This document shows, piece by piece, positions 3,941 through 29,735 of a stretch of 64,000 nt of DNA. The stretch is from positions 29,840 to 93,839 of IMG/VR virus record IMGVR_UViG_3300022666_000353; one strand, given 5' to 3'. The notes under the pieces were generated by a model. That model ran no database searches, had not been told where the DNA came from, and saw only the letters and a program-made list of their open reading frames with translations. The position numbers were made by a program, and so were the translations under genes. Each line of letters opens with the position of its first letter. Position 1 is the stretch's first letter. The stretch is from a virus.

Positions 3941-5599
3941 TTAAAACCCAAGGGTACCCTGCTCTGTCTCTGTGTCCTTTTTTACCTTCTGGGCCTTTTT
4001 AAAGGAGCCTGTGGTCGGAGGCATTTTTACTTCTACTCCGCTCAGTATATCTTCAACGGTCAGTATCTGTATACGGGGATAGTCTTTTTGCCAGAGCTCT
4101 GACCGGTAGAAGCCAGCAGTCGCAGCCTCTTTGGTCATCTCACCCGTGGGAGCTTCAAGAGTGACAAATACCCCGATACAGGCGTCAGGTTCCCGTGAAA
4201 GAACGCCTACCAAATCTCGGATGTCTCCGCTCTTTACGTGTCCAGATTTCACCTGGACCAGAACCCGTTTGGCCTTTTTACTGGCGTCATCTATGAAGGT
4301 AATCACGCCGTCGATACCTTTATCTGAACCTTTCTTCCCCTTCTTGTCGCCTTCACTGCCGCCCAACGGCCTGGCCTGTATTAGTGACAGCGCCCACCAC
4401 TGGAACTGGTAGCGGTCTTCCTGGGCCAACTGCCGGGCTGCGCCCAGGTCTTCCGGTTCGCCAATCACATCATAGTCCTTGCATGGCACCAGGTCATACA
4501 TATCTTTGAGCCGGAGTTTGTGCATGGCAATCGCCAGATGGGTGATGTCAATGCCAATCCACTTGCGGCCCAATTTCTGTGCCGCTGCAATTGCGGTTCC
4601 ACAGCCGGAGAATGGGTCGAGCACAATGTCCCCTTCATTGCTCGACGCCTGGATGACGCGCTCCAGGAGCACAAGGGGTTTCTGGGTAGGATAACCTAAA
4701 CGTTCTGCCGCTTGTGCGCCAATAGGAGGTATGTCTAATAGAATATCTTGCAGGGCTATACCTTTAACCTCATCCAAGTACCGCTTGTAAGCAGGGACCC
4801 CCCCTTTCGGAGGCCAATAGATTCTCCCCTTTTTATCCAGTTCTTCGAGGTTTTCAATGGTATATTTCCAGTGGTTACCCTTTGCAGTTACATCAACGCC
4901 TCTCCATGACTCTCCTGAAGACCCGTGTCTAATTCCAGCCGCAGTCAGGTCACTCAGTCGGTAACGCCTTCCTTCGGTGTCAACATGCCGATAGAACTTC
5001 TCTACATAATCCGGGTCATGTGGAGTGAATTGCGGGTTCCATGTAAAGTCGCCCGATTTACTAAAGAACAACAATACATCGTGTACCGGGCCGTATCTTT
5101 TAGCTGAACTGTGGGCACTGGTCCGCTTCCAACAAATCTCATTTTGAAAATTCTGGACGCCAAACACTGTGTCTAGAATTATTTTTAAATAGTGACTCGC
5201 TGTAGGGTCACAGTGCAGGTAAAGACTTCCAGTTGGCTTCAATACCCGATGTAGCTCTACTAAACGAGCAGCCATCATCACCAGGTAGGCCATCATCTGG
5301 TTCGACCCAATAAACTGGCGCATGGCACTTATCATGGTGCTTACCTGAGGGTTGGAACTTTCAATAAGTTCGCTATAAATACTTTCTGCGGATTGGCCCC
5401 AGTGCCAGGAATCATCGAAGGCCGTGATTTGCGACTCGGAATCATGACCGCTTTCATCTTTGAATAAAACATTGTAAGAACGGCTGGAGTTGAAAGGCGG
5501 GTCCAGATAAATTAAATCTATACTTTCGTCAGGGATGTATTCCCGCAGGATACCAAGATTGTCCCCATAGAACAAAGTATTATTTTGTATGTGTTTCAC
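3941..5599 (-). CDS. beta-class N6A/N4C DNA methyltransferase with C-terminal Mrr-like endonuclease domain
   Basis: IYLDPPF (motif IV) precedes YPTQKP and DPFSGCGT (motif I); C-terminal DKGIDG...VQVKSG. Confidence 0.9.
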   Translation of the reverse strand: MKHIQNNTLFYGDNLGILREYIPDESIDLIYLDPPFNSSRSYNVLFKDESGHDSESQITAFDDSWHWGQSAESIYSELIESSNPQVSTMISAMRQFIGSNQMMAYLVMMAARLVELHRVLKPTGSLYLHCDPTASHYLKIILDTVFGVQNFQNEICWKRTSAHSSAKRYGPVHDVLLFFSKSGDFTWNPQFTPHDPDYVEKFYRHVDTEGRRYRLSDLTAAGIRHGSSGESWRGVDVTAKGNHWKYTIENLEELDKKGRIYWPPKGGVPAYKRYLDEVKGIALQDILLDIPPIGAQAAERLGYPTQKPLVLLERVIQASSNEGDIVLDPFSGCGTAIAAAQKLGRKWIGIDITHLAIAMHKLRLKDMYDLVPCKDYDVIGEPEDLGAARQLAQEDRYQFQWWALSLIQARPLGGSEGDKKGKKGSDKGIDGVITFIDDASKKAKRVLVQVKSGHVKSGDIRDLVGVLSREPDACIGVFVTLEAPTGEMTKEAATAGFYRSELWQKDYPRIQILTVEDILSGVEVKMPPTTGSFKKAQKVKKDTETEQGTLGF

Positions 5600-11963: not shown

Positions 11964-12196
11964 GTACCCTCCGTTTCCAACGTTATTAAAGACTCCAGGT
12001 CATTAACGAGTCCGCGCAACTGCTCTACTGATAACCAAATAGCTCCGCTGCTGTCCCCGACGTCCACGGATAACATAAAAGTTCTTTCTCCGTTATCCCC
12101 TTTATCTGGCTGTATCGCGGCTGACCCGGAACAATAACGAGAACCACACCCGCACGGGACGTAAATCATTGGACGGCCCAATTCATTTCTTTCCAT
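11939..12196 (-). CDS. hypothetical protein
   Basis: SD GGAGGA; CxCxxxxC. Confidence 0.5.
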   Translation of the reverse strand: MERNELGRPMIYVPCGCGSRYCSGSAAIQPDKGDNGERTFMLSVDVGDSSGAIWLSVEQLRGLVNDLESLITLETEGTWPDGITE

Positions 12197-12434
12197 CGTC
12201 CTCCTCCTTTGCCATTCGGATGATGTCAGCCAGGGTCTCAATTATTTCTCTGCGAATGTCTGGGTCTATTTCTTCAAACCCATGCTTAATACCGCGCCGG
12301 TCACAAAGGTTTGCTACAACACCACGGGCCGCCCGGTAAGCCCAGTCTCCCTCAACTACAAACCCTTCTCCATCCGGGGCATCATACGGCCACTGTGTCC
12401 CTGCCTCAAGGTTCCATTTTGCGTAATCGGTCAC
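12183..12434 (-). CDS. hypothetical protein
   Basis: SD AAGGAGG; DRRGIK motif. Confidence 0.6.
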   Translation of the reverse strand: MTDYAKWNLEAGTQWPYDAPDGEGFVVEGDWAYRAARGVVANLCDRRGIKHGFEEIDPDIRREIIETLADIIRMAKEEDDGKK

Positions 12435-12462
12435 TATGTCCTCCTTAAATCAAAACGACCCG

Positions 12463-12705
12463 TTATTCTTTCGGGGCGTTAAAGATGGAAACAGGCATTG
12501 AGGCCGCACTTACTGACGGTATTTCTACCCAACAATACAACGTGCCATGGTAATACCACAGCCTGCCAGGTTGCACGCGGGCCAGGTCTTGTAAGCATTC
12601 CTCAGAAATCACATCGCCGCTTCCGTCTACGTCACCAACTTTTGCAATAATCCCCCGAACAAATACTTTTGGGTCGTTATCGCTGCTAAGAATAACATTG
12701 TTCAA
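12463..12705 (-). CDS. small protein resembling a prohead-protease/XkdF N-terminus
   Basis: VRGII..VGDVDGSGDVIS resembles VRGFF..DNKDETGDIIT of the protease at 34235. Confidence 0.4.
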   Translation of the reverse strand: MNNVILSSDNDPKVFVRGIIAKVGDVDGSGDVISEECLQDLARVQPGRLWYYHGTLYCWVEIPSVSAASMPVSIFNAPKE

Positions 12706-12733
12706 AACGCACCATCCTTTAAATTAAAAAAGA

Positions 12734-12805
12734 AGCCCCCACCCAGACGTGCGCTGGGTTCTCCTGATTACAGGTCAGGTGCGTCACTATATACGCTTTA
12801 GGGGC
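12734..12805 (-). tRNA. tRNA-Thr(UGU), atypical (C33, T-loop CGCACGU)
   Basis: Cloverleaf: GCCCCTA/TGGGGGC, GCGT/ACGC, CCTGA-CCTGTAA-TCAGG, CCCAG/CTGGG. Confidence 0.75.
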
Positions 12806-12811
12806 AGTCAA

Positions 12812-12883
12812 AGCCGAAGGAGAGATTTGAACTCTCAACCTACCCGATACGAACGGGCTGCTCTACCGTTGGGCTACTTCGGC
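12812..12883 (-). tRNA. tRNA-Thr(CGU)
   Basis: GCCGAAG/CTTCGGC, GCCCG-TTCGTAT-CGGGT, GAGAG-TTCAAAT-CTCTC. Confidence 0.9.
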
Positions 12884-13024
12884 GTACGGGTACGGGCATT
12901 GCGACAGAGGCTCGTTAGGTAGTGGCCCTAGATTTGTTATGCGCTTCCTGCTGCGGCAAGGGGAACCACTCGCGCTTCCACCCACTCCGGCTTGTATCCC
13001 GGTTTGTACGTCCTTGACCCGTTA
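12884..13024 (-). ncRNA. unassigned structured RNA A
   Basis: Closing stem ACGGGT/ACCCGT; AGTGGTTC/GGGCCACT; CTTGC-CGCA-GCAGG; no plausible ORF. Confidence 0.45.
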
Positions 13025-13060
13025 GTTTTAAAAATAGGACACAGCGACCTGTGTCCTTCT

Positions 13061-13172
13061 GCACCAGGTTTACTACCACCTCACGGATACTGTTTAGCTA
13101 TTCGACTATCCGCGGTTCATCGAACGTGCTTTAGCAAGGTCTTCTTTGTACTTGAGAAGACGAGCCTGGTAC
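13061..13172 (-). ncRNA. unassigned structured RNA B
   Basis: GTACCAGG/CCTGGTGC closes arms GTCTTCT/AGAAGAC and CGCGGATA/TATCCGTG. Confidence 0.55.
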
Positions 13173-13176
13173 ATAG

Positions 13177-13244
13177 TAGCGGGGGAGAGGGTCGAACTCT
13201 CTTAAGGAAGGTTATGGGCCTGCCGGGTTCCGAACCACCCCGCT
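13177..13244 (-). tRNA. tRNA-Met(CAU)-like with collapsed D-arm
   Basis: AGCGGGG/CCCCGCT-A, AGG-CCCATAA-CCT, GAGAG-TTCGACC-CTCTC; D region only GTTCGGAAC; 68 nt. Confidence 0.65.
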
Positions 13245-13249
13245 TCAAA

Positions 13250-13453
13250 TCAACTAACTTTTACGTACCTAATTTCTTTTGCTTGTCGTTCTTCCGTCTG
13301 TCCTACGTAGTACGCAGCCACAATCAAAGCATCCACATTGGACATGTCCACGGCCTTACCATACAACTGACCTGCGGCAATCTTTTCCTTAATGGTCCGT
13401 GCCATGAACTCAATCGAAAGTTTCTCTACATCCTGATACGGGCCCATAATCAT
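13250..13453 (-). CDS. hypothetical protein inside the RNA operon
   Basis: SD AGGAG; 67 aa. Confidence 0.55.
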   Translation of the reverse strand: MIMGPYQDVEKLSIEFMARTIKEKIAAGQLYGKAVDMSNVDALIVAAYYVGQTEERQAKEIRYVKVS

Positions 13454-13477
13454 TCTCCTGGTTTTGCTGGCCTAGAG

Positions 13478-13612
13478 TGGTCATCCAGCGCGGGGTCAGT
13501 GCTCGAACCCTTTGTACGGTGCTTCTTCCGTCAGTAGGATTGAACAGCGGGCCTGTTCTCCCCAGCAAGTCCAGTTGCAACGACTGTCGGCTATCACTGT
13601 GTGCCGAATGAC
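13478..13612 (-). ncRNA. unassigned structured RNA C
   Basis: 10-bp closing stem GTCATTCGGC/GCTGGATGAC then CA; arms GAACAG/CTGTTC, ACGG/CCGT, GGGTT/GACCC. Confidence 0.6.
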
Positions 13613-13616
13613 TAGG

Positions 13617-13688
13617 CGGGCTGGGAGCGTCTCGAACGCTCACTTCCCGTTTAAACGGCGGGTGTTCTGCCTAATGAACTTCCAACCC
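13617..13688 (-). tRNA. tRNA-Lys(UUU)-like, atypical anticodon loop
   Basis: GGGTTGG/CCAGCCC-G, GTTC/GAAC, CCCGC-CGTTTAA-ACGGG (G33, C31.A39), GAGCG-TTCGAGA-CGCTC. Confidence 0.7.
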
Positions 13689-13722
13689 GTGTGGACACAG
13701 TCGCCGCTGTGTCCGTTTCGTG

Positions 13723-14082
13723 CTAGTTAATTTCGTGGTACTCCAGCACCGCCACATCGGGGAACCGGACGTAGCCTTCGTCCGCGTCAAAGTAATACAG
13801 TTCTGCCGCGTTCAGCGGGGCAGGCCAACGCTCTTTCCACATCACCACCATTGCGCCCGCCTCTTCTTCCGTCACCGTGCCGGTGGACGCCAGGTAATTC
13901 GCCAGGTTGCGAACCGCACTCAACGCGGCCTCATACTTTTTCTGCGCCCGTTCGAACGTGCCGATTGCGGTGTTCTGCCACTCCTGCCAGGGGCCGTCAT
14001 CGGACAGCACCCGCACACCATCTTCAACCACACGGGCCGTGATTTTCTCCGAACACCAATCTTTCACTACTTCGATATACAC
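13723..14082 (-). CDS. hypothetical protein inside the RNA operon
   Basis: SD AGGAGG before GTG at 14082. Confidence 0.65.
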   Translation of the reverse strand: MYIEVVKDWCSEKITARVVEDGVRVLSDDGPWQEWQNTAIGTFERAQKKYEAALSAVRNLANYLASTGTVTEEEAGAMVVMWKERWPAPLNAAELYYFDADEGYVRFPDVAVLEYHEIN

Positions 14083-14118
14083 GTGTAATCCTCCTAAACT
14101 AGTAGAATAAAGGACCAG

Positions 14119-14212
14119 AGCGGGAGAGTGGACTTGAACCACTACCTCCTCCACTGCCTGTTTAAGCTACCAGTCACAGTGGCGTGCTGTACCGCACTAT
14201 ACACCACCCCGC
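14119..14212 (-). tRNA. tRNA-like RNA with Gly-type acceptor and extended anticodon arm
   Basis: GCGGGG/CTCCCGC-U, D arm GTGT/GCAC, T arm AGTGG-TTCAAGT-CCACT; anticodon arm is 32 nt. Confidence 0.65.
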
Positions 14213-14258
14213 ATAATAGGGACACGGGCAATCCTTAGTCATGCCGCTGTGTCCCATA

Positions 14259-14353
14259 CCGCCCATCCGTCTTTCCCCGTCCTTCCCCGGTCTGGTTTCC
14301 CCTAATCCCTGTTTCCAGGGGAATGGTAGAACTCTCAGTCACGTGATGGGCAG
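14259..14353 (-). ncRNA. unassigned structured RNA D (G-run rich)
   Basis: CTGCCCATC/GATGGGCGG closing stem; CCCTG-GAAA-CAGGG; three GGGGAA repeats. Confidence 0.5.
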
Positions 14354-14357
14354 TGAG

Positions 14358-14443
14358 TGGTGACGGCTGGATTTGAACCAGCATTACCCATGTGGGAACC
14401 TGTTTTACAGACAAGCGCGACTAACCGTATTCGCATCGTCACC
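14358..14443 (-). tRNA. tRNA-Tyr(GUA)
   Basis: GGTGACG/CGTCACC-A, CTTGT-CTGTAAA-ACAGG, long variable arm, TTCAAAT loop. Confidence 0.9.
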
Positions 14444-14479
14444 GTAAATAAACTAAATTTTTGTGGTACACCAAAAGAC

Positions 14480-14560
14480 CAATCTCCGGGGGACTAAGGC
14501 GGTCAGACCCTAGTCCCCCTTTACCTGGAGGTTGAAAATGAAGGGGCGGTCAGACCCCTA
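14480..14560 (-). ncRNA. twin-hairpin RNA E with identical UCUGACCG loops
   Basis: AGGGG-TCTGACCG-CCCCT and GGGGGACTAGGG-TCTGACCG-CCTTAGTCCCCC. Confidence 0.55.
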
Positions 14561-14561
14561 G

Positions 14562-14636
14562 AGAGCGGGGCAGGGGTTGAACCTGCTACCTCCTGGTTGT
14601 CTTACCCAGGGCTCCTACCGCGGAGCTTCCCACTCT
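14562..14636 (-). tRNA. tRNA-like RNA with 9-nt anticodon loop (identity undetermined)
   Basis: GAGTGGG/CCCGCTC, GCTC/GAGC, CCTGG-GTAAGACAA-CCAGG, GCAGG-TTCAACC-CCTGC. Confidence 0.7.
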
Positions 14637-14747
14637 GGTCGAGCGTCCCAGCGTCGTCTGGGTTAGCCGGTCACGTTGGTGGCCTCCCGCTGAACCCGGC
14701 GCGGTACACCTGCCATACCGCTGGCGTCCGTTCACCACATCACTCGA
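14636..14747 (-). ncRNA. enlarged tRNA-like RNA F ending in ACCA
   Basis: TCGAGTG/CGCTCGA followed by CCA; CCCAG/CTGGG arm next to the acceptor; long TGAAC..GCGGTA/TACCGC..GTTCA arm. Confidence 0.55.
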
Positions 14748-14768
14748 AGTAAATGTCCCAGTCCACAA

Positions 14769-14843
14769 AGCCCCGTCAGGGTCGGGTATCTAACCTGGAT
14801 ACCACCACTCTATATTTCAAGAGTTTCGATGGGTGGGCGGGCT
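14769..14843 (-). ncRNA. tRNA-sized structured RNA G
   Basis: AGCCC/GGGCT closing stem; ACTCT/AGAGT and GGTATC/GATACC arms. Confidence 0.4.
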
Positions 14844-14972
14844 TATCACTGGTTTGTCCCTGTCGCTGCCGGTCTGCTTGCCGACTGTCATCACCACTCC
14901 GCGCTAAATCCAGGTGACGGAAAGGAGAGATGGTTACTCCTCTGGCGGGCTGTCTTTTCCAGCGGTCATTGT

Positions 14973-15106
14973 CCGACTGAATTGTGTCCGGCTACCGAGT
15001 TTTTTGATGTGTTGGTAAATGGATTGGGTATGCGCCAAAGAGCCTATCCTCTGTAATAGCTCCTGATAAGTCACCAACACGTCTCTGACCCGTTCCAGTC
15101 AGTCGC
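14973..15106 (-). ncRNA. rod-shaped RNA H with central bubble
   Basis: CGACTGA/TCAGTCG closing stem, A-rich internal loop, GTGTTGGTGA/TTACCAACAC stem. Confidence 0.5.
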
Positions 15107-15113
15107 AACCAAA

Positions 15114-15185
15114 AGGCACTTGAGTGATTCGAACACTCGTCTGCGCCGTACAACCGGCGCGTTTTCCCAATTAAACTAAAGTGCC
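15114..15185 (-). tRNA. tRNA-like RNA with Cys-type acceptor and 6-nt anticodon loop
   Basis: GGCACTT/AAGTGCC-U, GTTT/AAAC, CGCCG-GTTGTA-CGGCG, GAGTG-TTCGAAT-CACTC. Confidence 0.7.
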
Positions 15186-15274
15186 GTCGTCCCTACGTTC
15201 CCGTCATTACGGGTCTATGGGTTGCCTCAGTCCCAACTCTGGAGGTGAACATGACTGGCCACACCTGGCCAAGG

Positions 15275-15348
15275 CGGTGCCGGGGGGGAGTTGAACCCAC
15301 AACCTCCTGTTTTGGAGACAGGTGCTCTGCCAATTGAGCCTCCGGCCC
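15275..15348 (-). tRNA. tRNA-Trp(CCA)
   Basis: GCTC/GAGC D arm, CCTGT-CTCCAAA-ACAGG, TTCAACT loop; acceptor stem imperfect. Confidence 0.85.
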
Positions 15349-15350
15349 GT

Positions 15351-15562
15351 AAGATTGGGACACGGTGAGGTGCCTGAGAATAGCGCCGCGCCAGTTATTC
15401 TTCGTTCGTTTATCGGCCATCTCCTGGACCCTCCTGGTACTGGATGCGCCCCCGCAGTGCCACGTACTACCAGGATTAGAGCATTCCGACTACCCACGAC
15501 ACCGAGGCCACTCACCTAACTTACAGGTCGGTGCGGCTGACACAACCCGTGTCCCAAATCTT
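15351..15562 (-). ncRNA. unassigned ~210-nt structured RNA I
   Basis: ~15-bp closing stem AAGATT(T)GGGACACGG/CCGTGTCCCAATCTT; TCCTGGTA/TACCAGGA and AGAATA/TATTCT arms. Confidence 0.6.
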
Positions 15563-15638
15563 TAAATTAAGTTTTCTTCCCAACGCACCTCCCACGGGTT
15601 CTATGGGTTGCCTCTGTCCCTTCTTGTCCAACTCGCAG

Positions 15639-15901
15639 TGGACCCGGTGGCATCGAAGCCACGTCACTCAGCGCCTTTAGTTCTCCTGATGTAGAGTCAT
15701 TCCCGTTATATCCTGCGGGTCAGGTCTTACCACCCCCACCACCTGGTTACTTACGCGAAGGCCAGGACTTCGTCAGACACAGGTGCTACGATAACTTTGC
15801 ACCCAAACAACTGTTCAGCTAAAGAGACTTCGTCTTTATTGGCTTTTGTTTTTTGTGACTCTCGGATTAGTTTGACACCAAGCTCGAAACCTTGCGGGCC
15901 C
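15639..15901 (-). ncRNA. ssrA: tmRNA, compact (263 nt)
   Basis: 5' GGGCCCG..GGTTTCGA; 3' GAC-GTGGC-TTCGAT-GCCAC-CGGGTCC-A with G3.U70; tag frame ANKDEVSLAEQLFGCKVIVAPVSDEVLAFA*. Confidence 0.9.
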
Positions 15902-15902
15902 T

Positions 15903-16456
15903 TAGTTGCCGGTCTCTGCCGGCTGTCACGGTGTCTGGTTGGCACATTTCCTTGACGCGTTGTGGCATACGATTAACGCCTTCACTCGACCGCCTCATGC
16001 TCTGTGTGTCACCGTTTACACGTTTAGGTTTAACAGTTCCGGCTATGACGGCGTCGCTCTCGCGCAAAGGCTCTGAGGGCGTTACACGGGCGTCCAGGAA
16101 TACTCTCGGACAGTCTCACCCTATCCTGTCAAACCCGCAGTTCCTCTCGTTGTGCGGGCAAACCCGTGCACTAGCACTGTTGTAAAGTCTCGAACCACAC
16201 AGTTCTTTGGAACTCCACCTGTTACCAGGTATAGAAGAAGACCGCGTAGTCGTCTAACAGCAGCGATTGTTTCCCTGTGGTTCTTACCAACTCCTCGCGT
16301 GTCCCGCTGTGTTAGGCTTGATTTCAGGTTGCGCCTCCCTACTCTCTTCCACTCGCCACTCTTTAAAGGATGACGTGCTAAGTCAACCTCCCGTCAGTCT
16401 CAGCCGGATGTGACCACCTGGTGTGTTATTACTACAAACACCACCAGGCTCATCCA
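15903..16456 (-). ncRNA. candidate large (~550 nt) ornate ncRNA
   Basis: No SD-led ORF; nested helices CCTGGTG/ACCAGG, AGGTTG/CAACCT, CTAACA-CAGCG/CGCTG-TGTTAG, AACAGT/ACTGTT, TGCACGGGT/GCCCGTGTA, GCCCGCA/TGCGGGT; GUAA and GAGA tetraloops. Confidence 0.65.
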
Positions 16457-16510
16457 AATAATATACGGTTGTTAATGTGCTATTAAAAACATTTTATATT
16501 TCTATGTATA

Positions 16511-16539
16511 ATTATAGCGCGTTAACCACCAGAAGTCAA
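16511..16539 (-). promoter_or_regulatory. sigma70 promoter of the RNA operon
   Basis: TTGACT-N17-TATAAT. Confidence 0.85.
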
Positions 16540-16544
16540 GCAGT

Positions 16545-16775
16545 TTATTCACTTTCTTTTGCAATTCTTATAAACTCTTGCTGCGCTACCCTCAACCACA
16601 GTCGTTCAAACGCGGCGTTGCCGCTGTGTCCATCCGCCAAAATACCCCAGTCTTTACGAACTGCATCCAGGTCACGGATGTTTTTAATCATCCTACGGTA
16701 CTGAAGCAGGTTCGCAGTTTCCAAACCAATAAGAATTACCAATAATAAACAAACCATAACCGTAATCATAGCCAT
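16545..16775 (-). CDS. small membrane-anchored protein
   Basis: N-terminal TM helix. Confidence 0.45.
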   Translation of the reverse strand: MAMITVMVCLLLVILIGLETANLLQYRRMIKNIRDLDAVRKDWGILADGHSGNAAFERLWLRVAQQEFIRIAKESE

Positions 16776-16799
16776 TTCCTATATGTTATAATTCGGCCT

Positions 16800-17189
16800 A
16801 TGAGCGACACACCTCTTATCCATTTCCGTCACCGCGTGGGCGACGGAGTTCACTATATTACCGAACACCCCCGCACCTTCAAAAAAGACGGAGAAACCCA
16901 GAGGGGAGACACATCCGAGCTTTGTATATTGCTAAACCTTGAAATCGTGTTGTCCTGTTTCGGACTACCAGGGCTGGACGAGCTGTGGAACTCCGTATAC
17001 CCAAACGATTTCATGTCTGTGGAAGATGTGTCATATATCATGTCCACTGCCATCGCGTTCTCGGACGAGTTCAATCCTAGAATACCGGATAATGTGGCTG
17101 ACGTTCTGCGCGACGTGCAAGCTATGCACTGCGACGAACTGGCAGACGCGGCAGAAGAGTTATTAAAATCACAGGGGGCTGTTGTTTAA
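16800..17189 (+). CDS. hypothetical protein, probably leaderless
   Basis: TGtTATAAT ends 7 nt before the ATG; no SD. Confidence 0.55.
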   Translation: MSDTPLIHFRHRVGDGVHYITEHPRTFKKDGETQRGDTSELCILLNLEIVLSCFGLPGLDELWNSVYPNDFMSVEDVSYIMSTAIAFSDEFNPRIPDNVADVLRDVQAMHCDELADAAEELLKSQGAVV

Positions 17190-29050: not shown

Positions 29051-29735
29051 CATTATTTAAAATTGTTAGGTTGGTCAGTAAACCTAACGCACATACAGCA
29101 ACACACCTCGCTGGGTGGGCCAAGTTTCTGCGGAAGCGCGTAGGCTCCCCCCGGGAAGCGGCTGACGCGGCACCGGTTCCTGTACTTCCTCGTTATCACG
29201 ATAGTGCAGAGACAAACTGGCGGTACGTTGACTGGGCTTTGCCGCCCGCTCAACATCACAGGCTCACCCCAGAGTGAGCGAAACGAGTCTGTGTCCAACT
29301 TAAAGCTCACAAACCACCCGAACCCCCCGTCCTGCTTGGGGGCGTAGCGAAGACCCGATGACACAACGTCGGTCACCTGATAACGGCAGACCTGGGCAGG
29401 TCAATATAAGCTACGCTTTGAATGCAAACATTCTTAACCTCCCCCGGATAGGGGGATTCTACCTACCTGCCGAGGTGACGAGTACGTTATACCCGACGCA
29501 GTACGTCATATCTGTATAAAGGAACTAACAGATATAAGACACAGGGCGGCAGGTGTGAAGATACCCATACTGCGCTGTGACTATCTTATACAGTTAGTTT
29601 CATTAGCACATTTATTCTAAGATAGTACGAATGAATAATAGGCCGCTGTGTAATCTTATTATTATTTTTATGTACCGTCAGGTAGATTGTTACACAGTCA
29701 ACCCCTGTGACTAAGGGATAGTTATACCTATTTTT
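29050..29735 (+). ncRNA. candidate large structured ncRNA (or structured origin)
   Basis: No SD-led ORF; at least 12 helices including GTTAGGTT/AACCTAAC, GCGTAGC/GCTACGC, ACCTGCCG/CGGCAGGT. Confidence 0.55.

Follow-up and report, generated by a model that had tools for sequence, protein, structure and literature searches.

Large structured non-coding RNAs such as GOLLD and ROOL occur in the tRNA arrays of phages and prophages (PMC12286853), and the locus described here raises the question of what heads such an array when neither of these RNAs can be recognised in it. The window (the whole 64,000-nt stretch of DNA that we analysed) comprises bases 29840–93839 of a 93.8-kb IMG/VR virus record, which is classed as a provirus. 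A first-pass annotation had placed a single ~550-nt multi-domain RNA at 15903–16456, at the head of a tRNA/tmRNA operon, with nested helices, GNRA loops and two GAGAGUA segments, and had been unable to assign it to a class. Comparison with relatives indicates that a large structured non-coding RNA does head the operon, as that annotation held, and that it can be assigned: judged from its sequence, the minus-strand segment 16407–16039 is a divergent representative of a large and, it seems, previously undescribed phage RNA family that copies the GTPase-associated centre (GAC) of 23S rRNA, the piece on which uL11 and translational GTPases dock (Table 1).

Every RNA gene near this segment lies on the minus strand. 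A putative sigma-70-type promoter, recognised by consensus match alone (11 of 12 positions, with a 17-nt spacer), is followed by ~4.5 kb that carry a tmRNA-like gene and at least six tRNAs, also on the minus strand; since the promoter faces this operon, the GAC-mimic stretch would be its first transcribed segment, read as the reverse complement. The leader between promoter and RNA (16505–16409) folds with a minimum free energy (MFE) z of −1.26, and no counterpart of its hairpin was found in the relatives. On the other side of the RNA, the 3' spacer folds no better than shuffled sequence (z +0.10), has a best Rfam match of only E 2.6 and is not alignable with that of locus L016. The tmRNA-like gene, predicted by ARAGORN, has a G3–U70 acceptor pair and a 30-aa tag with LAFA at its end; Rfam tmRNA models returned nothing on it even at E ≤ 10. 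Long non-coding gaps (e.g., 13245–14356 and 14444–15113) part the tRNAs of the operon (12734–15348, minus strand), one of which (15114–15185, minus strand) has an abnormal anticodon loop to which ARAGORN assigns no anticodon. Elsewhere in the window, an Rfam EGFOA RNA match at 29311–29416 (plus strand) scores barely above its gathering score (40.8 versus 37.7 bits). A distant-mode blastn search of 15600–16560 against 50,697 phage records gave no match, no close relatives were found in IMG/VR through the neighbouring 252-aa protein and the RNR large subunit, and the sequencing runs that hold the stretch are three DNA runs of one biofilm-metagenome study, possibly its origin, with no RNA run listed.

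Table 1 Features of the GAC-mimic RNA and its surroundings in the window (positions of the 64,000-nt stretch; helices and strands are given 5' to 3' on the minus strand).
Feature	Positions	Strand	Details
Sigma-70-type promoter of the RNA operon (putative)	16511–16539	−	−35 at 16539–16534, −10 at 16516–16511
5' leader hairpin, between promoter and RNA	16416–16451	−	12 bp in the MFE fold of 16505–16409
Whole GAC-mimic RNA, 369 nt, first to last base of P1	16039–16407	−	R1, 3' signature and MFE fold
P1 5' strand, H42-like closing helix	16391–16407	−	16407–16402 and 16396–16391, with a 5-nt internal loop between
Copy of 23S helix 43 (E. coli 1056–1081)	16367–16390	−	R1, high posterior probability
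Junction UUUAAAGAGU (23S 1082–1090 as in many bacteria)	16358–16367	−	identical to family consensus
Inserted domain	16072–16354	−	enclosed by a 3-bp stem, 16357–16355/16071–16069
Three-way junction in insert	16083–16170	−	outer helix 16170–16162/16091–16083, hairpins A and B
Hairpin A, like the sarcin-ricin loop (SRL)	16133–16159	−	7-bp stem, 13-nt loop, GAGA tetraloop closed by C-G
Hairpin B and second GAGAGUA segment	16097–16130	−	hairpin 16130–16109, GAGAGUA 16109–16097
3' half of GAC copy	16046–16071	−	insert-stem 3' strand, UUUG, 10-nt hairpin, ACGC, P1 3' strand
3' spacer, 137 nt, before the tmRNA-like gene	15902–16038	−	hairpin at 15923–15908
tmRNA-like gene, compact, 264 nt	15638–15901	−	ARAGORN only

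Searches with Rfam 15 of the window, of 12000–17000 and of the stretch 15903–16456 alone, at gathering score and at E ≤ 10, returned nothing but noise for the stretch (E 1.9–3.2). The covariance-model search that the first-pass annotation had suggested is included here: the GOLLD, ROOL, OLE and RNase P models were all without a match in 15903–16456, and the same search detected GOLLD (RF02032) at 164.8 bits in another phage tRNA array (L012, 685–1176, minus strand), which served as a positive control. We therefore exclude all four classes, and the view that the RNA is neither GOLLD nor ROOL stands. The open reading frames of the stretch match no protein family in Pfam or PHROG. The MFE fold of the 554 nt is not above chance when compared with dinucleotide shuffles (z −0.95 for the minus strand and −0.79 for the plus strand); since folding energy is no better than that of the shuffles, the case for structure rests on comparison with relatives.

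The GAC (the top of H42, with H43 and H44; E. coli 1051–1108) is the minimal RNA that binds uL11 and thiostrepton, and it touches EF-G and EF-Tu. We defined the phage family from ~60 loci and lined up 36 distinct loci for architecture. A degenerate pattern for 23S H43 matched 50 IMG/VR contigs, just two of which contain real rRNA by blastn against E. coli 23S, the others holding 30–44 nt of 23S. The non-rRNA loci carry ~35 nt of H43 and then, 77–370 nt further downstream, an H44-like decamer. Their parts follow a fixed order: the closing helix P1, the H43 copy, the junction UUUAAAGAGU, the insert stem, the insert, UUUG, the H44 copy, ACAC and the 3' strand of P1. The insert is variable and enclosed by a short stem, and the H44 copy consists of a stem and a GUARYA hexaloop closed by G-C and C-G pairs. 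The family RNA is a GAC with a domain inserted between 1090 and 1091 and closed on itself by P1. It retains H43 nearly base for base, the 1082–1090 junction, the H44 stem with its A1095-type hexaloop and the G1055–C1104 pair, but differs from the rRNA in being free-standing, in having its own covarying helix and in separating 1090 from 1091 by 47–340 nt. A word-7 blastn search of the inserts for other 23S pieces found that H43 and H44 alone recur. The mimics lie on the same strand as adjacent tRNA genes, often immediately after a tRNA.

An alignment of 19 short members (A1) supports this architecture: 95.3% of its cells pair, versus 33–57% when the partner column is slid, both sides have changed in 12 of 21 pairs, and the covariation score is 0.552 versus 0.157 for shuffled alignments. 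Covariation was seen in seven of the eight P1 pairs, in all four pairs of the insert stem and in the 1058–1080 pair. Invariant or nearly so were the H43 loop, A1067, A1095 and the pairs 1091–1100 and 1092–1099, as would be expected if the rRNA's partners are imitated. A covariance model (R1) built from these 19 members, phage only, recovered 18 held-out members end to end at 79–106 bits, with ends identical to those drawn by hand, and scored E. coli's own GAC at 59 bits. The held-out set includes the cultured phages pf16, Aeromonas 4_4572, XacN1 and GAP32, in which the element is intergenic and unannotated, and short H43 matches were found in phages CBB, Milchi, Astolliot and UNO-G1W1 too. A pattern for the 3' half matched 26 genome contigs, mostly metagenome bins from many phyla; R1 confirmed at least 20 of them, which again lie in tRNA arrays, in two cases close to a tmRNA. 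Mimics from gammaproteobacterial phages (pf16, GAP32) differ from the E. coli-type H43/H44 junction of their hosts, which argues that the family is not a set of recent rDNA captures. A model for the family is absent from Rfam 15, and open-access full text and bioRxiv yielded no account of such a phage RNA; it is with reference to these sources that we call the family undescribed.

Members of the family vary in their inserts. A 73-nt member at L027:6152–6224 (plus strand) lacks an insert and is a bare free-standing GAC copy, scored by R1 at 57 bits. One insert subclass ends in CACCCC-GNRA-GGUAAGG (L002, L004, L021, L026, L028, L033, L038, L047, pf16 and Aeromonas 4_4572), and another carries GGGGAAGGACAAG and CCCUUAGAGC before UUUG (XacN1, GAP32, L005, L008 and L018); the second 3' element also occurs in the window's subclass. 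The gene directly upstream of the mimic in XacN1 (L054:828–1478) is annotated as a 2'-5' RNA ligase. As in the window, tmRNA genes lie in the mimic-bearing phage arrays of L059 (1758–2108, minus strand) and L062 (712–1026, plus strand). Suppressor-type tRNAs are found a few kb from the mimic in several loci (anticodon CUA in L005, L019, L022, L032, L048, L059 and L074; UUA in L082). Loss of uL11 lowers RF1-dependent termination, and a link between the GAC mimic and stop-codon recoding is conceivable.

In the window, R1 gave a single match, starting at 16401 (27 bits, E 1.6e-6 for 64 kb), and none elsewhere in the 94-kb record; the other members of its subclass (see below) score 26–57 bits, and typical members 80–106. 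The model aligns only the 5' half of this copy correctly, as it does for L016, so the 3' half was placed by hand; the 3' signature at 16071–16046 is unique in 64 kb and occurred in none of 20,000 shuffles of the 600 nt downstream. Unconstrained MFE folding of exactly 16407–16039 recovers P1, H43 and a hairpin at the H44 position. The 12 pairs of P1 (16407–16402 with 16044–16039 and 16396–16391 with 16051–16046) open with the equivalent of G1055–C1104 and join both ends of the RNA, and three of the changes relative to L016 are compensatory. The two loci share 52 nt at 86.5% identity (E 1.3e-10). Like other members, the copy sits in a tRNA array on the tRNA strand. No LSU rRNA hit was obtained, and blastn-short (word size 7) against E. 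coli 23S, 16S and 5S gave 10–11-nt chance matches only, so that a 23S gene or fragment was not detected.

The H43 copy, which the first-pass annotation had overlooked, keeps the H43 stems and the UUA of the 1065–1067 loop, as well as the junction that follows; its hairpin loop is 2 nt shorter than that of every other member, and alignment within this loop is ambiguous. The 3' half has the segment lengths and order of the family (4 + 10 + 4), with ACGC in place of ACAC. At the H44 position (16064–16055), three base pairs and a GAGA loop replace the family's two base pairs and GUAAUA-type hexaloop at equal length. The decamer differs from the family consensus, in which the hexaloop has an invariant A1095, at nine of ten positions, and we therefore file the window as a divergent variant rather than a typical member. 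The exchange also flips the pairs 1091–1100 and 1092–1099, which we take, from Draper-laboratory work and crystal structures, to be the pairs that dock the H43 loop in rRNA as base-triple partners.

These boundaries revise the view of one ~550-nt molecule, since the unit is 16407–16039 and the rest of 15903–16456 consists of the 5' leader hairpin and the 137-nt 3' spacer. Its nested helices survive in part. The inner ones (16170–16162/16091–16083 and the hairpins 16159–16133 and 16130–16109) are retained; the two outermost (AACAGU 16181–16176/ACUGUU 16037–16032, and GCUA/UAGC) are absent in relatives and clash with P1 (16407–16391/16051–16039). Covariation among homologues, which had been suggested as a check, was analysed, and P1, the insert stem and the inner helices, among them 16170–16162/16091–16083 and hairpin 16159–16133, keep their pairing in relatives through compensatory changes. 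Both GAGAGUA segments (~16345 and ~16106) and the GNRA loops are present, the latter in the minus-strand sequence.

The architecture of the insert is common to the window, L016 and L086, with 21 pairs kept through double changes in L016 (counted with RNAalifold on the window and L016) and 29 when L086 is included. Folded separately, the window and L016 adopt the same three-way-junction layout, and its outer helix has five compensatory pairs between them; the CCGAGAGUA motif of the hairpin B region is found again in L084. Hairpin A resembles the universal SRL (H95, E. coli 2653–2667), from which it retains C-GAGA-G and the following GGAA; 2 nt of the S-turn (the bulged-G turn) are missing, so a true sarcin-ricin motif cannot form in the window. 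A search pattern combining the SRL core with the family 3' half found three further distinct members, L084, L085 and L086 (identical to L087), all confirmed by R1. The hairpin tips of these three match the universal SRL over 12–13 consecutive bases, and in L016 the AGUA/GAA S-turn is preserved together with a GNRA loop. We aligned these four with the window and E. coli 23S 2645–2676 (alignment A4), reading the pairs of the SRL-hairpin stem by hand, as MAFFT had misplaced the window's 2-nt gap into the stem; six of the seven stem positions differ among members with pairing retained, i.e., the stem covaries.

By sequence, then, a subclass of five members (the window, L016, L084, L085 and L086) carries an SRL copy or an SRL-like hairpin at one position of the insert, the hairpin of the window being 2 nt short in the S-turn. 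Among the loci, a 14-mer that matches the SRL with no more than three mismatches turns up roughly every 44 kb; against this background, its presence at a shared position in five RNAs is not chance, though the search pattern did select for the motif. Compared with the rRNA, the phage copies lie in the insert of a GAC copy instead of in domain VI, and their stems bear no relation to H95. Within the subclass the window stands apart: its H43 loop, H44 loop and SRL S-turn are all altered while its helices and junction strands are intact, and its closest relative, L086, has canonical H43, H44 and SRL loops. Two other candidates were rejected. L053, suggested as a subclass member by a motif scan of metagenome contigs, proved to be a chance hit that has no H43 and is not alignable, and a kink-turn considered for the conserved GA...GA segments beside the insert stem failed a hand check.

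To our knowledge, the rplJ/L10 leader is the sole established precedent for mimicry of the GAC region. In leaders of this type, as in the phage family, an RNA off the ribosome imitates a protein-binding site of rRNA in the stalk-base region. L10-type leaders are cis-acting 5' UTRs of bacterial ribosomal-protein genes and resemble rRNA loosely, whereas the phage RNA is its own gene in tRNA arrays, is near-identical to rRNA in sequence and has no Rfam leader match. We found no sign of such a 5' UTR role for the window RNA in its surroundings or in Rfam: a tmRNA-like gene and tRNAs lie downstream, and the Rfam search was without a match. With GOLLD and ROOL the family shares being a large structured RNA inside a phage tRNA array; in L012, GOLLD and a GAC mimic (4484–4600) occur in the same array. 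The mimic differs from both in having no sequence or structure match to them. GOLLD and ROOL form RNA-only cages, and we know of no report that either copies rRNA.

What such an RNA might do can be proposed from these likenesses. We hold, with moderate confidence, that it is a stand-alone copy of the GAC (and of the SRL in one subclass) that mimics the factor-binding site away from the ribosome. Transcription from the promoter at 16539–16511 would produce 16407–16039, probably to be cut out of a tRNA/tmRNA precursor. Its ends would rebuild the top of H42, H43 and H44, to which the inserted middle would, in this subclass, add the SRL copy. In this role the RNA may bind a host component by which the site is ordinarily recognised, and thereby titrate it or recruit it; candidate partners are in the first place uL11 and the uL10–bL12 stalk proteins, and next a translational GTPase or RelA. 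Genes for uL11, bL12 and RelA were not found in the phage record, so any partner among them would be host-derived. We infer both the partner and the benefit to the phage from resemblance alone: at the positions through which rRNA contacts uL11, thiostrepton and factors the family is nearly identical to rRNA, and elsewhere it covaries freely, a combination that speaks for binding-site mimicry. Ribosomes number in the tens of thousands, and a non-catalytic sponge could compete with them only at very high abundance.

For the window itself, the remodelling of three exposed tips (H43 loop, H44 loop and SRL S-turn) has probably changed or weakened binding specificity relative to the relatives. Its copy may not bind the partners of those relatives, given that its departures from the family fall on precisely those bases with which rRNA contacts uL11, factors and thiostrepton, and that its SRL-like loop is without the S-turn. 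Only tentatively do we extend the proposal further: in some phages, one RNA could be a soluble replica of the whole factor-binding site (GAC and SRL), capturing a GTPase, RelA or the uL11 stalk, or shielding the ribosome from toxins, and the window could be a variant that keeps the scaffold with its three tips re-engineered, which would imply that the partner has changed or that a host counter-measure is being evaded.

Among other explanations, the one that survives best, although we consider it unlikely, is that the RNA is an anti-toxin decoy that absorbs or inhibits host or competitor toxins attacking GAC and SRL sites (H44 ADP-ribosyltransferases, SRL nucleases). Toxins with H44 and the SRL as targets do exist: Tre23 ADP-ribosylates 23S H44 at 1095–1098, blocking the GTPase of EF-G, and the SRL is targeted by VapC20/26, which cut it, and by ricin-type enzymes (PMC8661411). 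The family occurs among phage tRNAs and sometimes beside a phage tmRNA, i.e., among RNAs that repair or replace translation components, and one subclass unites both toxin targets, H44 and SRL, on one RNA. Phage tRNA arrays are thought to counter tRNA-targeting defences, a setting that a decoy would fit. However, we know of no toxin directed at the GAC or SRL that acts as an anti-phage defence, and a decoy for a catalytic enzyme would be of little help unless it were a tight inhibitor. The window copy, moreover, has neither the H44 hexaloop nor the SRL S-turn, which are the targets themselves.

The same three alterations could mean that the window phage carries a decaying relic, its scaffold still recognisable but its functional tips lost and the job of the family no longer done. 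The closest relatives, L086 and L016, have canonical H43, H44 and SRL loops, so that against them each of the three lesions is derived, and the R1 score of 27 bits places the window at the bottom of the members. Decay seems rather improbable to us, because the helices are intact (P1 with 12 pairs, and insert stems kept despite heavy divergence) and because at H44 ten bases have been cleanly exchanged for ten that form a stable GNRA hairpin, with UUUG and ACRC still in register, which has the look of remodelling. The gene is also the first in its operon, behind a near-consensus promoter.

The remaining two accounts are very improbable. A single ornate ~550-nt RNA resembling GOLLD or ROOL, spanning 16456–15903 with outer helices of its own, would accord with the 554-nt MFE fold, which closes the whole stretch, and with the occurrence of such RNAs in phage tRNA arrays (PMC12286853; GOLLD in L012), but it is contradicted by the lack of an Rfam match, by a fold equal to that of shuffles, by outer helices that are missing in relatives and incompatible with the covarying P1, and by 137 nt at the 3' end that are without conserved or stable structure. 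A captured piece of host rDNA, or a regulator of the ribosomal-protein-leader type, which in either case would do nothing as a free RNA, might explain the very high identity to 23S H43 throughout the family, yet the 23S content is just ~35 + 10–18 nt, interrupted by an insert and enclosed by a covarying non-rRNA helix, the pf16 and GAP32 mimics are unlike their hosts' H43/H44 junction and hence not recent captures, and the neighbours are tRNAs in place of ribosomal-protein genes, with no hit to L10_leader or any other Rfam family.

We return, then, to an off-ribosome imitation of the factor-binding site. The family is present in cultured phages (pf16, XacN1, GAP32, CBB and Aeromonas 4_4572), which already opens this proposal to bench experiments. 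By the position and stem of its SRL-like hairpin, the window falls in the rare subclass in which one molecule unites copies of the GAC and the SRL, and it adds a tip-remodelled variant that stands at the head of an operon and adjoins a phage tmRNA. With its H43 loop, H44 loop and SRL turn altered and its helices intact, it is a natural triple variant and a ready-made control for binding studies. If the proposal is true, phage tRNA genes are accompanied by a free-standing replica of a functional site that ranks among the ribosome's most conserved, and the family would represent a novel class of viral non-coding RNA, and with it a novel route by which phages manipulate or protect host translation.
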